Assembly: GCA_001001205.1 (NCBI GenBank)
Contig: LCKE01000015.1
Coordinates: 1 to 43,298, forward strand
Direction of reading: 5' to 3'
DNA length: 43,298 nucleotides
Source: Parcubacteria group bacterium GW2011_GWF2_45_11
GTDB lineage: Bacteria > Patescibacteriota > Patescibacteriia > UBA1558 > UBA10009
The first letter of the stretch is position 1. The number at the start of each line of letters is the position of its first letter. The position numbers and the translations under genes were made by a program. The notes under the pieces were generated by a model. It had not been told where the DNA came from, ran no database searches, and was given only the letters and a program-made list of their open reading frames with translations. This document shows positions 28,011-30,859 of the stretch, in pieces.

Positions 28011-28492
28011 CCCCGAGCTTACGCTCGGGGTATTAGCCGAACGCAAGCTTCGCTTGTCCAGAGTCCTCTTGCCCCTGCTGCTCAATATATCGCCTAATAA
28101 CCTTCAGACCAGACGCTGTCGGTGCCCCAATAGGCCTCTTTGACGAACGGGAATTTTTGCTTCAATGATTTGGCGGTATTGCTCTTTATTATCCTGACCG
28201 CATTACCCACTGACATCGTGGGAGGAATGGAGACCAAAAGGTGAATATGGTCAAAATCGTGATTAACCGTCTTACAGCTAATTAGTGGGTAATGCTTGTG
28301 AATTTCATCAAGCTTGGTCTCCAAATAGGCAAAAATTCCCTCGTTAAATATCCTCTTTCGATATTTAGTCACTAAAACAAGGTGGTAATCGCAATAGTAG
28401 ACACAATGGCTAAGTCTTGTCACTTCCATACCTTACAGTATGAGGCAAGAGGACTCTGGAATCAACTCCATCCCACGGCCTTACGGCCGGGG
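28011..28492 (-). mobile_element. IS200/IS605-family element (tnpA only), decayed
   Basis: Subterminal hairpins with an identical GTAA loop on the element strand: CCCCGAGC-GTAA-GCTCGGGG (28011-28030) and CCCCGGCC-GTAA-GGCCGTGGG (28472-28492). A 17-bp inverted repeat GGCAAGAGGACTCTGGA (28057-28073 / 28444-28460) brackets tnpA. Confidence 0.75.
28094..28429 (-). pseudogene. tnpA: IS200/IS605 Y1 (HUH) transposase TnpA, C-terminally disrupted
   Basis: HUH motif DHIHLLVSIPP is present. The frame stops after ...VWSEGY. The expected C-terminus VIRRYIEQQGQ..., with the catalytic Tyr, is readable only in another frame (about 28040-28100). About 12 codons (FVSTVG...) are missing. Confidence 0.8.
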
Positions 28493-29554: not shown

Positions 29555-29648
29555 TGGAGCCGACGGTCGGATTCGAACCGACGACCTACAGTTTATGCCG
29601 CCCTTGGCGGCACCCCGCCGAAGGCGGTGGCAAAACTGTTGCTCTACC
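29555..29648 (-). pseudogene. partial tRNA-Thr(UGU) copy A with a 35-nt insert in the anticodon loop
   Basis: The 3' half at 29555-29595 is 41/41 identical to the intact gene. The 35-nt insert is at 29596-29630. Then 18 nt, GGTAGAGCAACAGTTTTG (29631-29648). The acceptor 5' strand and D-stem 5' strand are absent. Confidence 0.85.
29596..29630 (-). repeat. 35-nt two-hairpin GC-rich mini-insert (copy in Thr-UGU fragment)
   Basis: Plus strand TGCCGCC-CTT-GGCGGCA CCCCGCC-GAA-GGCGGTGG. It is 32/35 identical to 30349-30383, and all 3 differences fall in the hairpin loops. Confidence 0.85.
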
Positions 29649-29659
29649 TGCCGAACGAC

Positions 29660-29716
29660 TGGAGCCGACGGTCGGATTCGAACCGACGACCTACAGTTTA
29701 TGCCGCCCTTGGCGGC
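29660..29716 (-). pseudogene. partial tRNA-Thr(UGU) copy B: 3' half plus one hairpin
   Basis: The 3' half at 29660-29700 is 41/41 identical. It is joined at the same anticodon-loop position to TGCCGCCCTTGGCGGC (29701-29716). It shares the trailer GTCGTTCGG with the intact gene. Confidence 0.85.
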
Positions 29717-29725
29717 CCGAACGAC

Positions 29726-29801
29726 TGGAGCCGACGGTCGGATTCGAACCGACGACCTACAGTTTACAAAACTGTTGCTCTACCAACTGAGCTACGTCGG
29801 C
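29726..29801 (-). tRNA. tRNA-Thr(UGU)
   Basis: GCCGACG TA GCTC AGTTGGTA GAGC A ACAGT TTTGTAA ACTGT AGGTC GTCGG TTCGAAT CCGAC CGTCGGC T CCA. Confidence 0.93.
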
Positions 29802-29822
29802 GACTGGCGACTGGCGGGCAGG

Positions 29823-29859
29823 CAAAACTGTTGCTCGGCAAATCAGCTTAACATATCGC
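29823..29859 (-). pseudogene. degenerate 5' half of tRNA-Thr(UGU)
   Basis: GAGCAACAGTTTTG is exact (29823-29836) and is preceded by a diverged acceptor/D-arm-like stretch. It ends at the same anticodon-loop position and abuts CCTGCCCGCCAGTCGCCAGTC and then the intact gene. Confidence 0.55.
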
Positions 29860-29979: not shown

Positions 29980-30065
29980 TGGTGGGCCGGGTAGGATTCG
30001 AACCTACGAAGGCGAAAGCCAACAGATTTACAGTCTGTCCCGTTTGACCGCTTCGGTACCGACCC
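29980..30065 (-). tRNA. tRNA-Tyr(GUA)
   Basis: 86 nt, class II with a long variable arm. Acceptor GGGTCGG/CCGGCCC, anticodon stem ACAGA/TCTGT, loop CTGTAAA, T-loop TTCGAAT, CCA encoded. Confidence 0.92.
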
Positions 30066-30075
30066 ATATAGACTT

Positions 30076-30321
30076 TTAATTTTCAATTAGCTTTTTAAAT
30101 GCTTCACCGCCTTTATATGATTTTATTCGCAACTCTCTTTTATATGCTTCTTGTTTTGTTAAATACTTTTCCTGATATATAAATTTCCAAGGTACGCCTG
30201 GTTTTGTTGATCTGACTAAACCAGCATTGTGTCTTTTCAATCTTTGCTCCAAATTACCTGTGTGACCAATATAATACTTCTTAATTGAAACACTATATAA
30301 AATGTAAACAATATACTTCAT
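30076..30321 (-). CDS. GIY-YIG nuclease-domain protein (small, catalytic domain only)
   Basis: 81 aa. Motifs YIVYILYS...KYYIGHT (GIY-YIG), RLKRHN, and the conserved Arg/Glu region (KRELRIK). Confidence 0.85.
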   Translation of the reverse strand: MKYIVYILYSVSIKKYYIGHTGNLEQRLKRHNAGLVRSTKPGVPWKFIYQEKYLTKQEAYKRELRIKSYKGGEAFKKLIEN

Positions 30322-30341
30322 TATCCCTTTTCTTAAGCTTT

Positions 30342-30418
30342 AGATTTATGCCGCCTGTGGCGGCACCCCGCCAAAGGCGGTGGCAGTCTGTCCCGTTTGA
30401 CCGCTTCGGTACCGACCC
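30342..30418 (-). pseudogene. duplicate of tRNA-Tyr positions 1-41 interrupted by the 35-nt insert
   Basis: GGGTCGG...ACAGACTG (30418-30384), then the 35-nt insert (30383-30349), then TAAATCT (30348-30342). The tRNA-derived parts are identical to the intact gene 277 bp downstream on the same strand. Confidence 0.85.
30349..30383 (-). repeat. 35-nt two-hairpin GC-rich mini-insert (copy in Tyr fragment)
   Basis: Plus strand TGCCGCC-TGT-GGCGGCA CCCCGCC-AAA-GGCGGTGG. It sits between TTTA and CA, exactly as in the Thr-UGU copy. Confidence 0.85.
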
Positions 30419-30626
30419 TCGTTGTAATCGCGCTCCAGCCTCCGTTGCCGAATGAAATTCGGGTACTCCGGCTTACGCGCGCGCTTGCAATCTTAAGTTT
30501 GCTCAATCTAATAAATATTTTTTAAAATAACTATGCCATAATATAATATAAATCGGCTAAAAAATCAAGAGGATTAAATATAAAACCCAGATTTACTGGG
30601 CGTTATGGCAATACCTGCTAATTAAC

Positions 30627-30724
30627 TGGAGCCGATGTGCGGACTTGAACCGCGGACCTACTCCTTACTCCGCCTACACCCCTTGTTTTGCTTGGGGTTT
30701 CGGCGGACAGGCATGGAGTTGCTC
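30627..30724 (-). pseudogene. partial tRNA-Thr(GGU) copy with a 44-nt insert in the anticodon loop
   Basis: The 3' part at 30627-30668 is 41/42 identical to the intact gene. A 44-nt hairpin insert TCCGCC...GGCGGA-CAGGC lies at 30669-30712. Then ATGGAGTTGCTC (30713-30724). The acceptor 5' strand and D-loop are absent. Confidence 0.8.
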
Positions 30725-30741
30725 CCCGCCTGCCGATCGCC

Positions 30742-30817
30742 TGGAGCCGATGTGCGGACTTGAACCGCAGACCTACTCCTTACCATGGAGTTGCTCTACC
30801 AACTGAGCTACATCGGC
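30742..30817 (-). tRNA. tRNA-Thr(GGU)
   Basis: GCCGATG TA GCTC AGTTGGTA GAGC A ACTCC ATGGTAA GGAGT AGGTC TGCGG TTCAAGT CCGCA CATCGGC T CCA. Confidence 0.93.
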
Positions 30818-30838
30818 GCCCGGAGACTGGCGGGCAGG

Positions 30839-30859
30839 TACTAACTGAGCTACAACGGC
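30839..30859 (-). pseudogene. orphan tRNA 5' fragment (acceptor strand plus D-stem/loop)
   Basis: GCCGTTGTAGCTCAGTTAGTA is 19/21 identical to the Thr-GGU 5' end. It stops after D-loop ...GTA and abuts CCTGCCCGCCAGTCTCCGGGC and then the intact gene. Confidence 0.65.

Follow-up and report, generated by a model that had tools for sequence, protein, structure and literature searches.

A GIY-YIG nuclease gene between a tRNA-Tyr gene and its hairpin-interrupted partial copy: a possible homing-type cassette of bacterial tRNA genes

A small GIY-YIG nuclease gene, set between an intact tRNA-Tyr gene and a partial copy of it broken by a two-hairpin module, was found at positions 29980-30418 of the window, i.e. 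the whole 43,298-nt stretch of DNA analysed here (contig LCKE01000015.1, assembly GCA_001001205.1, Parcubacteria group bacterium GW2011_GWF2_45_11). The same arrangement recurs in other genomes, is missing from the conserved site in closer relatives, and encodes a protein of recognisable fold under purifying selection. These results are consistent with a widespread selfish cassette of the homing type that settles in tRNA genes while sparing one intact copy, a reading whose chance of being right we put at about even. A selfish element that invades tRNA genes yet leaves a working copy is apparently undescribed. No published account of the nuclease/tRNA-duplicate arrangement was found in open-access papers and preprints, in agreement with a preliminary description of this DNA.

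On the minus strand, nt 1-35 of tRNA-Tyr are followed by the 35-nt two-hairpin module, nt 36-42, 20 nt, the 81-aa ORF, 10 nt and the complete tRNA-Tyr gene (Table 1). All seven parts of this layout, as listed in the preliminary description, were found by ARAGORN, Rfam, Pfam and repeat search, and the duplicated nt 1-35 are indeed identical to the intact gene. The duplication stood but the bounds given for its segments did not: nt 1-34 and 35-41 (41 nt) are actually nt 1-35 and 36-42 (42 nt). The module, made up of CCACCGCC-TTT-GGCGGGGTGCCGCC-ACA-GGCGGCA, is placed between anticodon bases 1 and 2 (G^TA) of the partial copy. Where the window has TAAATCT, homologous loci retain tRNA nt 36-42 up to 36-50. 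The ORF is flanked by direct repeats of 35-43 nt, and the AAGGG ahead of its ATG in the 20-nt spacer may act as a weak ribosome-binding-like site. The 439-nt feature is spanned entirely in four independent metagenome assemblies (L001-L004; 99.5-99.8% identity) and the layout recurs in at least 60 species, which rules out an assembly artefact. The same layout, made from its own tRNA-Tyr allele, is present in the more distant genome L008.

Table 1. Positions in the window of the nuclease gene, tRNA genes, partial tRNA copies and hairpin segments.
Feature	Position	Strand	Basis
Intact tRNA-Tyr(GTA), working copy	30065..29980	-	ARAGORN; Rfam tRNA 59.9 bits
Spacer, 10 nt, from ORF stop to tRNA-Tyr start	30075..30066	-	
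81-aa single-domain GIY-YIG nuclease gene (UPF0213/SLX1-like), including stop codon	30321..30076	-	Pfam PF01541, E 6.7e-15
A-rich 20-nt spacer	30341..30322	-	sequence reading
TAAATCT, copy of tRNA-Tyr nt 36-42 (remaining anticodon loop and 3 nt of stem)	30348..30342	-	sequence reading
Two-hairpin GC module, 35 nt, ccaccgcctttggcggggtgccgccacaggcggca	30383..30349	-	repeat search, sequence
Partial ('orphan') 5' copy of tRNA-Tyr, nt 1-35	30418..30384	-	repeat D9, 35/35 identical to intact gene
Intact tRNA-Thr(GGT), between partial copies of itself	30742..30817	-	ARAGORN; Rfam 69 bits
5' partial tRNA-Thr(GGT), nt 1-21 (30859..30839), and GC-rich linker cctgcccgccagtctccgggc (30838..30818)	30818..30859	-	repeat D5; allele comparison
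Interrupted partial tRNA-Thr(GGT): nt 22-34 (30725..30712), 43-nt hairpin-forming anticodon insert (30711..30669), nt 35-76 (30668..30627)	30627..30725	-	repeats D1, D2
Intact tRNA-Thr(TGT)	29726..29801	-	ARAGORN; Rfam 78 bits
Partial tRNA-Thr(TGT), nt 22-35 (29836..29823), and remnant hairpin arm/linker cctgcccgccagtcgccagtc (29822..29802)	29802..29836	-	repeat D10
Single GC hairpin ggccgccaagggcggca (29717..29701) and tRNA-Thr(TGT) nt 36-76 (29700..29660)	29660..29717	-	repeat D1
tRNA-Thr(TGT) nt 19-35 (29647..29631), two-hairpin module 93% identical to Tyr module (29630..29596), nt 36-76 (29595..29555)	29555..29647	-	repeats D1, D8

Both flanking tRNA-Thr genes have hairpin-interrupted partial copies of the same kind without an ORF, a point that had gone unnoticed in the preliminary description. 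These copies are broken by a relative of the 35-nt module (repeat D8) and by other GC hairpins. Rfam scored 29555..29647 as a tRNA with an insert at 28.2 bits, slightly below the cut-off. The 66-nt unit made of the 29660..29717 hairpin and tRNA-Thr(TGT) nt 36-76 is missing in strains L001-L003, which amounts to a copy-number difference. In the 5' partial tRNA-Thr(GGT), the acceptor strand gccgttg is that of the relatives' allele; the intact gene instead has a variant with compensating changes. The acceptor stem of the intact tRNA-Thr(TGT), gccgacg/cgtcggc, is unlike the stem of syntenic relatives. No decayed ORF remnants were found at the tRNA-Thr loci by relaxed tblastn, and no remnant of the ancestral tRNA-Thr(TGT) allele was found within the window.

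In relatives L171/L172 and L174/L175, the same flanking genes enclose a compact Thr-Tyr-Thr cluster of 256 nt, from which the ORF, the partial copies and the hairpins are all missing. The equivalent of this cluster in the window is ~1570 nt, i.e. it has ~1.3 kb of extra DNA, in which no conserved ORF other than the GIY-YIG gene was found; the whole cassette insert is ~0.35 kb. TIM identity to the window is 57-58% for the cassette-free relatives and 49% for the cassette-bearing L008, the GIY-YIG protein of which is 75% identical to that of the window. Presence and absence at a conserved site, which characterises homing endonuclease genes, was thus observed when genomes with and without the cassette were compared, as the preliminary description had proposed, and the syntenic relatives entirely without it are the closer ones.

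The locus set (n=81) comprised the window and 80 loci from a species-representative genome collection; these 80 are the best matches to one subfamily, so that the survey is biased toward close relatives. The hosts are Patescibacteria, Ignavibacteria, Chlorobiota and Bacteroidota. A same-strand tRNA gene was found at the ORF end in 62 of the 81 loci, starting -63 to +53 nt from the stop codon (median ~5 nt); by chance, less than 1% per locus would be expected, as estimated from ~45 tRNA genes per Mb. The tRNA is of Ser type in 32 loci, Tyr in 29 and Thr in 1. An upstream copy of the tRNA 5' part, from nt 1, was present in 57 of the 62, being identical to the intact copy in 21 of the 57. Most of these upstream copies are broken by GC hairpins, in either the anticodon or the D loop. 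A survey of GIY-YIG ORFs near tRNA genes had been suggested in the preliminary description, with homologues lacking any tRNA association as the outcome that would speak against its reading; the linkage seen here is clearly the reverse.

The interrupted junctions (n=32) lie after anticodon base 1 or 2 in 19 cases and in the D arm in 13. D-loop hairpins within the partial copies are common to several Tyr cassettes. A mirror architecture was also found, with the intact tRNA upstream followed by ORF, hairpin and a 3' partial copy downstream, as were tandem arrays (Melioribacter, L075 and L091), truncated copies and genomes with several copies at different tRNAs. Hairpin-bearing partial copies without an ORF are present beside intact tRNAs in L035, L030, L102, L119, L129 and L141, as expected from ORF loss. 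One intact tRNA copy is always kept; the data thus agree with insertion of a nuclease cassette and rescue of the tRNA. The earlier suggestion of a cassette that rescues the tRNA is borne out in that the element is recurrent, tied to tRNAs, absent from closer relatives and accompanied by an intact copy. The cassette may or may not carry the 'fresh 5' portion' ascribed to it; in some loci the sequences speak for exchange of the entire tRNA. In L077, the partial copy is a natural tRNA-Tyr allele differing from the adjacent intact copy. This mismatch and the relatives' allele in the window's 5' partial tRNA-Thr(GGT) are sequence evidence suggestive of tRNA replacement.

In pairwise locus alignments made for the element ends, every high-identity pair came from related hosts with alignable flanks, and no element boundary emerged from these comparisons. 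L143, which seemed to have a different left flank starting exactly at the module, was rejected as a boundary marker; it is most likely a chimeric contig, a Levybacteria-like locus being apparently joined to window sequence at the shared 35-nt repeat. The protein family comprises 4,679 clusters at E <= 1e-10. Viral contigs gave only 2 weak matches with no tRNA nearby, and hence no obvious vector. A phage or defence origin was rejected on these weak matches, on the lack of a PHROG family and on a weak PADLOC match (E 0.003).

The 81-aa protein is, on sequence and model comparisons and with high confidence, a member of the UPF0213/SLX1-like clade. It matches PF01541 with 55.6 bits (cut-off 22.6). 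In profile searches against the PDB, the matches were 1zg2 (3.3e-10), 1ywl (7.5e-8), SLX1 (~5e-5) and I-TevI (0.01). The AlphaFold model (pLDDT 94.3) has the order strand-strand-helix-strand-helix-helix; with Foldseek, BH0048 and Slx1 were matched at E ~1e-4 to 1e-3 (TM 0.69-0.74) and I-TevI at E 0.12, and Slx1 superposed with an rmsd of 1.6-2.2 A. A C-terminal IKSYKGGEAFKKLI motif marks the subfamily. Across 40 homologues the catalytic residues Y6, Y17, G19, R27, H31, N32 and E63 never vary, and dN/dS is 0.08-0.23, which denotes purifying selection. Judged by these residues, the modelled fold and the selection, the protein is functional. Between the window and the nearest cassette-bearing relatives dS is saturated (~1.6); the cassette may thus have long sat upstream of tRNA-Tyr, which fits a domesticated function as well. 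Classical GIY-YIG homing endonucleases such as I-TevI, I-BmoI and the Seg proteins have the nuclease domain at the N terminus, followed by a DNA-binding region of ~100-150 aa with zinc finger, NUMOD or helix-turn-helix. The protein departs from them in its 81 aa, its single domain and the lack of a C-terminal DNA-binding region, and the group I intron endonuclease model TIGR01453 (NCBIfam) gave 16.8 bits (cut-off 56). To our knowledge, every characterised GIY-YIG homing enzyme carries a DNA-binding domain; as this protein has none, sequence-specific recognition of tRNA genes is hard to account for, a point against the homing-type reading.

The hairpin insert, noted in the preliminary description within the split tRNA copy, turned out to be more than a local scar: it is a dispersed mini-element that occurs outside tRNAs too. 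The motif CCGCC-N-GGCGG has 7 matches in the window, 5 of them in partial tRNA copies, and chance alone would give 0.25 over the whole window; neither this clustering in the tRNA cluster nor the module's membership of a dispersed repeat family had been noticed before. The same module consensus, with compensatory stem changes, precedes the ORF at most of the homologous loci, including those of Ignavibacteria. GC hairpins precede 75/80 ORFs at 8-45 nt before the ATG, and a strict adjacent hairpin pair was seen at 33/80 ORFs versus 1/220 control windows. Scanning metagenomes for the exact pattern returned 75 matches, distributed over 72 loci. Some 30 of these are outside tRNA contexts and have no ORF nearby, and the spread of the module cannot therefore rest on tRNA homology. 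Identical 36-nt copies stand at different, unrelated sites and one module forms an in-frame 12-aa insert in an Lnt-like ORF, as in dispersed palindromic mini-elements of the RPE/REP kind. Hairpin-in-hairpin insertions are seen. Elements of the IS200/IS605 type have subterminal hairpins at both ends, insert in one orientation 3' of a short target and carry a Y1 transposase in the autonomous copy. Set against these, the module showed hairpins, a single orientation and insertion after ..TG, but both hairpins lie on the same side of the ORF and no cassette has a Y1 gene; a truncated IS200 transposase is located 1.5 kb from the feature. The four hairpin arms can alternatively pair as a nested fold. 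The sense fold is lower in energy in 46/81 loci, i.e. sense and antisense are equally stable, and there is thus no sign of an RNA-only structure. No known RNA family for the hairpins was found in Rfam, where the matches were tRNA and a sub-threshold YrlA, the latter because the partial copy is tRNA-like.

For cleavage, target site, homing route, co-transcription and mode of movement we propose the following. Within a loop of the tRNA gene, the nuclease would nick or cut the DNA, with a probable preference for the sequence ..YTG^NAAA.. on the 3' side of the anticodon loop. A copy that bears the cassette would then serve as the recombination template for repair of the break, the two tRNA halves acting as homology arms, and the missing tRNA part, or the whole tRNA, would be supplied by the cassette. 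A functional tRNA would thus be regenerated and the insertion would be phenotypically silent. The gap between the ORF stop and the tRNA seems to leave no room for a promoter; transcription of the ORF probably starts at the tRNA promoter and runs through the partial copy, after which RNase P may part the ORF from the tRNA. The two-hairpin module, which marks the break in the partial copy, probably abolishes target and homology or else could be the binding site of the protein. Loss of the ORF would leave hairpin-interrupted tRNA fragments such as those at both tRNA-Thr genes. The intact tRNA keeps the presumed target sequence with no visible protection, and this counts against the homing-type reading. 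A bolder proposal, which we hold only tentatively and consider rather doubtful, is a new class of mobile element: a minimal, structure-specific SLX1-like GIY-YIG nuclease and its cognate two-hairpin module would invade DNA-folded tRNA loops with a replacement tRNA or tRNA half, so that the gene would never be lost to the host, and the 35-37-nt module would be a non-autonomous derivative mobilised in trans by this enzyme, entering further hairpin loops and, in its 36-nt form, protein genes in frame. If true, the element would be the GIY-YIG counterpart of RAYT/REP and a possible explanation for RPE-like elements.

An unlikely but serious alternative is that the ORF and a tRNA segment were moved by RecA-type homologous recombination and not by nuclease breaks in the tRNA gene. 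The route could be a Campbell-type single crossover in which an excised circle brings in a tRNA segment, or else replacement by DNA taken up from outside, for which conserved tRNA genes would offer portable homology, and the nuclease would have another task, e.g. cutting hairpins to release or stimulate the donor. A single crossover of a circle with tRNA nt 1-43 would give exactly the order partial copy, ORF, intact tRNA, and a circle with the 3' part the mirror form; both forms were observed. The direct repeats around the ORF agree with this, unequal recombination could yield the tandem arrays and the differences in copy number, the D-loop hairpins shared by Tyr cassettes suggest that the partial copy travels with the cassette, and a long target is unlikely to be read by a bare 81-aa domain. 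However, recombination by itself gives no reason for the clustering of breaks at ..TG^NAAA.. within the anticodon loop, nor for the presence in every cassette of a catalytically intact nuclease under purifying selection, and no circular form or junction was observed. It is quite unlikely that the module is a miniature palindromic element in its own right, moved for instance by a Y1 transposase of the IS200/IS605 type and collecting in dispensable tRNA pseudocopies, with an indirect link to the GIY-YIG gene. The identical copies at unrelated sites, the Lnt-like gene included, the nesting, the truncated IS200 transposase nearby, and the single orientation and constant insertion into loops, both typical of single-strand transposition, would suit such an element. 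Against it stand consensus hairpins that accompany the ORF across phyla as far as Ignavibacteria, the excess of strict pairs at ORFs over controls and the lack of a Y1 transposase in the cassettes, and the ORF-tRNA duplication would still have to be explained.

The nuclease could also be a domesticated host function that serves the tRNA locus by cruciform or R-loop resolution or by transcript processing, the hairpin-bearing partial copy being a structured leader that controls its expression. We regard this as improbable. A dN/dS of ~0.1, saturated synonymous sites, a position upstream of tRNA-Tyr kept in many Patescibacteria, a structure-specific nuclease fold, and hairpins close to the ATG with a possible nested fold all suit a host function, but closer relatives lack the cassette entirely, the tandem arrays, ORF-less relics and truncated and multiple copies are marks of selfish DNA, and the equal stability of the two strands' folds gives no RNA-only sign. 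Next to no probability is given to the hairpin-interrupted copy being a functional tRNA gene with a small spliced intron, which would make two tRNA-Tyr genes at the locus. The insert does lie in the anticodon loop, as in bacterial group I and archaeal tRNA introns, and Rfam reads one interrupted tRNA-Thr copy as a tRNA with an insert. But the Tyr copy ends at nt 42, without variable arm, T arm or 3' acceptor strand, and an uninterrupted tRNA was detected by ARAGORN at the ORF end of the 62 linked loci. A tRNA intron or split tRNA was ruled out because no complete interrupted copy was seen in the window or among the loci read in detail. A group I intron in a tRNA has a ribozyme core of ~200 nt or more, far above the 35 nt seen here, and no Rfam intron family matched the window even at E <= 1.

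If the homing-type reading holds, colonisation by a very small selfish unit of ~0.35 kb is routine for tRNA genes in ultra-small Patescibacteria, Ignavibacteria and some Bacteroidota. With one nuclease of ~80 aa and two hairpins, this unit would get round the difficulty of inserting into an essential gene, because it brings a spare copy along. The reading would show the minimum protein for a homing-type system, make that question testable and assign a concrete function to the UPF0213-like GIY-YIG family, which is large (thousands of clusters) and uncharacterised. It would also explain mis-annotated tRNA fragments, contig breaks and chimeric joins in metagenome assemblies of the host groups, and suggest a route for horizontal replacement of tRNA alleles. 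The dispersed module with its candidate enzyme provides an entry point to a long-standing question, namely what moves the short palindromic elements found in frame in genes.

UPF0213 proteins (BH0048, EF2693), a family to which E. coli YhbQ belongs, and eukaryotic SLX1 are the best sequence and structure matches of the nuclease, with which they have the motif set YxxYxG...R...HN...E in common. Unlike SLX1, the cassette protein has no Slx4 partner or RING domain, and IKSYKGGEAFKKLI sets it apart as a distinct subfamily; we know of no UPF0213/SLX1 member tied to tRNA genes. Rickettsia palindromic elements and REP/RAYT are dispersed short GC-rich palindromes, found in RNA-gene contexts and in frame in protein genes. 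The cassette module is likewise dispersed, both in RNA-gene contexts and in frame, and stands beside a candidate cognate enzyme gene. It differs from both in consisting of two direct hairpins of ~17 nt each and in being accompanied by a GIY-YIG nuclease, not an HUH/Y1 transposase.

Integrase-driven islands and prophages integrate into tRNA genes and restore them, as set out in PMC9897764, which cites Reiter 1989 and Williams 2002. As described there, such islands resemble the cassette: they land in a tRNA gene, often in the anticodon or T loop, carry a replacement segment, and have a partial tRNA copy at one end and the intact gene at the other (PMC9897764). Compared with the islands of that account, the cassette has no integrase or other gene, is ~0.35 kb, usually replaces the 5' part of the tRNA with its promoter side and not the 3' part, and has a partial copy that is additionally broken by hairpins. 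A direct repeat of a tRNA segment is present at the locus, but no tyrosine or serine recombinase gene. Bacterial group I introns also interrupt the anticodon loop of tRNAs and can be accompanied by homing-endonuclease ORFs (PMC3984707). Unlike these introns, the present insert has no ribozyme, the interrupted copy cannot be spliced into a tRNA, and function is kept by a second intact copy and not by splicing.

GIY-YIG-encoding non-intron insertions were described in rRNA genes of CPR bacteria by Tsurumaki et al. 2024 (PMC11270868), where CPR rRNA insertions in general lie mostly at the top or base of stem-loops. The hosts (Patescibacteria/CPR) and the placing of GIY-YIG ORFs in structured-RNA genes are alike. 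Those insertions, however, are in rRNA and are excisable or tolerated, and PMC11270868 makes no mention of tRNA genes, tRNA duplication or hairpin modules. The gene for phage T4 SegB, a free-standing GIY-YIG homing endonuclease, lies in a tRNA region (PMC2330249). In both systems the GIY-YIG gene stands among tRNA genes with no surrounding intron, and spread, known or proposed, is by break-induced copying with flanking tRNA sequence (PMC2330249). The parallel with SegB drawn in the preliminary description does not extend to the protein: SegB is a two-domain phage enzyme of the I-TevI type, whereas the nuclease here is a bare 81-aa UPF0213/SLX1-like domain encoded in cellular chromosomes. SegB loci are without partial tRNA duplication and without a hairpin module; the cassette has both.

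The preliminary description had given the minus-strand order of the feature as partial tRNA-Tyr copy, insert, TAAATCT, 20-nt spacer, 81-aa GIY-YIG ORF, 10-nt spacer and complete tRNA-Tyr, and it was read as stated. The duplicated tRNA-Tyr segments with an insert between them were also present, but their extents needed correction: the exact duplicate covers nt 1-35 of the gene (not 1-34) and TAAATCT corresponds to nt 36-42 (not 35-41). The insert thus splits the anticodon, separating G from TA. Its arms (CCGCC, GGCGG, CCGCC, GGCGG) permit two folds of similar energy, side-by-side hairpins or a nested form, and the nested form is favoured for this copy (RNAfold). An assembly artefact was ruled out, since the whole 439-nt feature is spanned by four independent metagenome assemblies at 99.5-99.8% identity.

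Parts of the tRNA-Tyr cassette and the intact tRNA-Thr genes in the window
Feature	Position	Strand	Basis
Partial tRNA-Tyr 5' end, exact 35-nt copy, nt 1-35	30418..30384	-	repeat D9
Two-hairpin GC-rich insert, 35 nt, ccaccgcctttggcggggtgccgccacaggcggca	30383..30349	-	sequence
TAAATCT, tRNA-Tyr nt 36-42	30348..30342	-	sequence
Spacer, 20 nt	30341..30322	-	sequence
81-aa ORF, GIY-YIG domain	30321..30076	-	Pfam E 6.7e-15
Spacer, 10 nt	30075..30066	-	sequence
Complete tRNA-Tyr(GTA)	30065..29980	-	ARAGORN; Rfam
Intact tRNA-Thr(TGT)	29801..29726	-	
Intact tRNA-Thr(GGT)	30817..30742	-	

The AlphaFold model of the 81-aa protein is confident (pLDDT 94.3). Its best matches in sequence and fold are UPF0213 BH0048/EF2693 and the Slx1 nuclease domain (TM 0.69-0.74, rmsd 1.6-2.2 Å), and the match to I-TevI is far weaker. 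No DNA-binding domain was found in it, and it falls outside the definition of classical two-domain homing enzymes. No variation was seen across 40 homologues at residues Y6, Y17, G19, R27, H31, N32 and E63. The dN/dS of 0.08-0.23 between homologues places the protein under purifying selection; it has thus been kept functional. Searches with the protein gave no phage family match, one weak defence-system match and, in viral contigs, only two weak relatives.

Close homologues of about 80 aa number hundreds, mostly in Patescibacteria, and a profile search of 1.84 billion representatives recovered 4,679 clusters at E <= 1e-10. A survey of GIY-YIG ORFs near tRNA genes for partial duplications, proposed in the preliminary description, was carried out by scanning one genome per species. 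This gave 389 relatives, of which the best 80 loci were analysed together with the window. At 62 of these 81 loci a same-strand tRNA starts between -63 and +53 nt from the ORF stop (median about 5 nt), and in some the stop codon is borrowed from within the tRNA. The tRNAs at the ORF end are nearly all of the long-variable-arm type (Tyr-GTA 29, Ser-GGA 11, Ser-TGA 10, Ser-GCT 8, Ser-CGA 3, Thr-TGT 1). At 57 of the 62 tRNA-linked loci the 5' part of the tRNA, from nt 1 on, is duplicated upstream of the ORF, bearing out the proposed association; the duplicate matches the intact gene exactly in 21 loci and has at least two differing positions in 15. Of 32 colinear interrupted junctions, 19 come after the first or second anticodon base and the other 13 are in the D arm. 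The break tracks the sequence (..YTG^NAAA..) and no fixed tRNA coordinate, being G34^U35 in Tyr and G35^U36 in Thr-UGU.

The loci other than the 62 are mostly contig ends, upstream units within tandem arrays, or of mirror-image architecture. The array of Melioribacter roseus has two full units and a truncated third ahead of tRNA-Ser(GCT). The mirror-image form, mainly in Ignavibacteria, runs intact tRNA, 2-14 nt, ORF, hairpin, 3' partial tRNA copy. A locus of the cultured flavobacterium Aquimarina rubra KCTC 52274 (L043, 1-960) holds three tandem units, the third cut off in the ORF; each complete unit consists of a GIY-YIG ORF, the 3' part of a CCA-anticodon (Trp) tRNA and a terminator hairpin, and no GC hairpin modules occur in 1-960 of this hairpin-free variant. 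Distant GIY-YIG paralogues in the analysed loci (27-42% identity) adjoin tRNA-Thr and tRNA-Arg too, and the tRNA association may reach beyond the Tyr/Ser subfamily. Three such paralogues, at comparison loci L051 (1970-2291), L069 (2764-3104) and L017 (1872-2444), show 27-38% identity to the window's protein and lie beside other tRNAs; two of them stop 5 nt ahead of tRNA-Thr(GGT) and tRNA-Arg(GCG).

The proposed comparison with and without the cassette was provided by syntenic relatives (loci L171/L172 and L174/L175), located via homologues of the TPR gene flanking the tRNA cluster. They share with the window the gene order peptidase S11, TIM, TPR, tRNAs, L33, Trp. Their compact cluster reads Thr-GGT, 13 nt, Tyr, 5 nt, Thr-TGT, 256 nt in total, and no ORF, partial copies or hairpins were found in it, whereas the equivalent region of the window measures about 1570 nt. 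Judged from this sequence comparison, the cassette region in the window is an insertion. The window stands nearer to these empty relatives (TIM 57-58%, TPR 59-61% identity) than to the cassette-bearing distant genome L008 (TIM 49%, TPR 28%, GIY-YIG 75%), and the distribution therefore needs gains or repeated losses. Between the window and the nearest relatives that carry the cassette, synonymous sites have reached saturation (dS about 1.6), which argues for long residence or ancient transfers over a recent jump.

All three minus-strand tRNAs of the window's cluster are flanked by their own partial copies, broken by GC hairpins. Upstream of tRNA-Thr(TGT) stand its nt 22-35 and a remnant hairpin arm; downstream follow a hairpin and nt 36-76, and farther on nt 19-35, a two-hairpin module sharing 93% identity with that of Tyr, and nt 36-76. 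The tRNA-Thr(GGT) gene is preceded by its nt 1-21 and a GC-rich linker and followed by nt 22-34, a 43-nt hairpin insert in the anticodon, and nt 35-76. No ORF or ORF remnant is detectable at either tRNA-Thr locus. The motif CCGCC-N-GGCGG occurs seven times in the 43-kb window against 0.25 expected by chance, five of them within partial tRNA copies. The 66-nt unit 29660-29725 (spacer, hairpin and tRNA-Thr(TGT) nt 36-76) is absent from the same-species contigs L001-L003 and L143, reflecting either a strain copy-number difference or a repeat collapsed in assembly.

Other elements were seen in these surroundings. A terminator-like hairpin, gcccagTAAATCTgggt, with a T run (30585-30601, minus strand) includes the TAAATCT that makes up the 3' portion of the anticodon loop in tRNA-Tyr; an earlier partial tRNA-Tyr copy, situated between the Thr-GGT and Tyr loci, may have left it behind. 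At 29611-29716 (minus strand) Rfam gives a sub-threshold match to YrlA, a Y RNA-like family (30 bits, cut-off 69), which is most likely not real and stems from the tRNA-like partial copy and hairpin. Between tRNA-His and tRNA-Trp lies a truncated IS200-like Y1 transposase ORF (28094-28429, minus strand; 111 aa; Pfam PF01797, E 9e-24) without the C-terminal catalytic part, flanked by a perfect 17-nt inverted repeat (28057-28073 / 28444-28460).

Several loci bear on how much of the tRNA is renewed. At L077 two different natural tRNA-Tyr alleles stand side by side, gggtcgg... in the partial copy and gggtgga.../...tccaccc in the adjacent intact one, in which both acceptor strands match. The relatives' acceptor strand gccgttg survives in the window's 5' partial Thr-GGT copy, whereas the compensated pair gccgatg/catcggc is carried by the intact gene as well as by the 3' partial copy of it. 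The acceptor stem of the window's tRNA-Thr(TGT) has four pairs unlike those of the syntenic relatives (gccgacg/cgtcggc vs gccacc[ct]/[ag]ggtggc; comparison with L174, L171 and L008). In its 5' part this gene (29726-29801) equals tRNA-Thr(GGT) of the comparison locus L168. It seems to have been replaced, or to have undergone recombination with the other Thr isoacceptor. A Doudnabacteria locus has the ORF and an intact tRNA-Ser(CGA) placed between the 5' and 3' ends of another tRNA-Ser. Together, the allele mismatches and this locus indicate that the whole tRNA, not only half, is renewed at least sometimes.

GC hairpins sit 8-45 nt 5' of the ATG, and 75 of 80 ORFs have one or more; they share the consensus CCACCGCC-loop-GGCGGGGT[G/C]CCGCC-loop-GGCGG[C/G]A, with compensatory stem variants. 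A strict adjacent pair was found at 33/80 ORFs vs 1/220 control windows. No Rfam family matched the module, and RNA folding gave no sense/antisense asymmetry. The module is itself dispersed. Scanning metagenome contigs for its exact pattern gave 75 matches in 72 loci: 20 are placed 9-27 nt ahead of a GIY-YIG ORF, 9 fall within a 3' partial tRNA-Tyr copy that directly follows ORF and intact tRNA, about 10 are in ORF-less partial tRNA-Thr or tRNA-Tyr copies beside the intact gene, and about 30 have neither tRNA nor ORF. In tRNA contexts the module follows the tRNA's orientation and lands in the anticodon loop, D loop, variable/T junction or loops of other module copies. Non-tRNA copies include identical 36-nt versions at different sites. 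At seven loci (L127, L100, L106, L135, L139, L157, L159) the 36-nt module is in-frame in long ORFs, a likeness to Rickettsia palindromic elements; at L127 (1016-2632, module 2146-2181) it adds 12 aa, AASGGTPPFGGG, to an Lnt-like (apolipoprotein N-acyltransferase-like) protein. Contig L143 (Ga0209212_1058910, 1-2672) joins a Levybacteria-like locus, with its own GIY-YIG and tRNA-Ser-GGA matching L064, to sequence of the window, and the junction falls precisely at the 35-nt hairpin module common to both. It is probably chimeric, and hairpin modules can mislead assemblers.

The cassette of hairpin-bearing partial tRNA copy, SLX1-like GIY-YIG ORF and intact tRNA is conserved and recurrent, is absent from closer syntenic relatives, and is accompanied by tandem arrays, by relics and by strain-to-strain variation in copy number. 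We infer that it is most likely a homing-type selfish element, a reading given about an even chance. The nuclease would break tRNA-gene DNA in a loop, and the cassette would be copied in by recombination with the tRNA halves as homology arms. The insertion would be silent through the tRNA part or whole tRNA that it carries, and the ORF would be expressed from the tRNA promoter. Loss of the ORF would leave hairpin-interrupted fragments, as at the tRNA-Thr genes. Movement by recombination only, through a Campbell-type crossover or replacement after DNA uptake, is unlikely. An independent palindromic mini-element merely accumulating in tRNA pseudocopies appears quite improbable. A domesticated function linked to tRNA is very doubtful. 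An intron is scarcely credible, being contradicted by the absent 3' half of the interrupted copy.

The preliminary description had held a small GIY-YIG protein with a split tRNA duplicate to be undescribed; no account of the arrangement was found in open-access papers or preprints, and an earlier description is possible. GIY-YIG ORFs occur in non-intron insertions of CPR rRNA genes (PMC11270868), a paper silent on tRNA genes. With the mobility that we infer, the cassette would work like T4 SegB, a free-standing homing endonuclease gene (PMC2330249), and like integrase-driven islands restoring the tRNA gene they enter (PMC9897764 and references there). It belongs to neither class, however, having no DNA-binding domain, integrase or intron.
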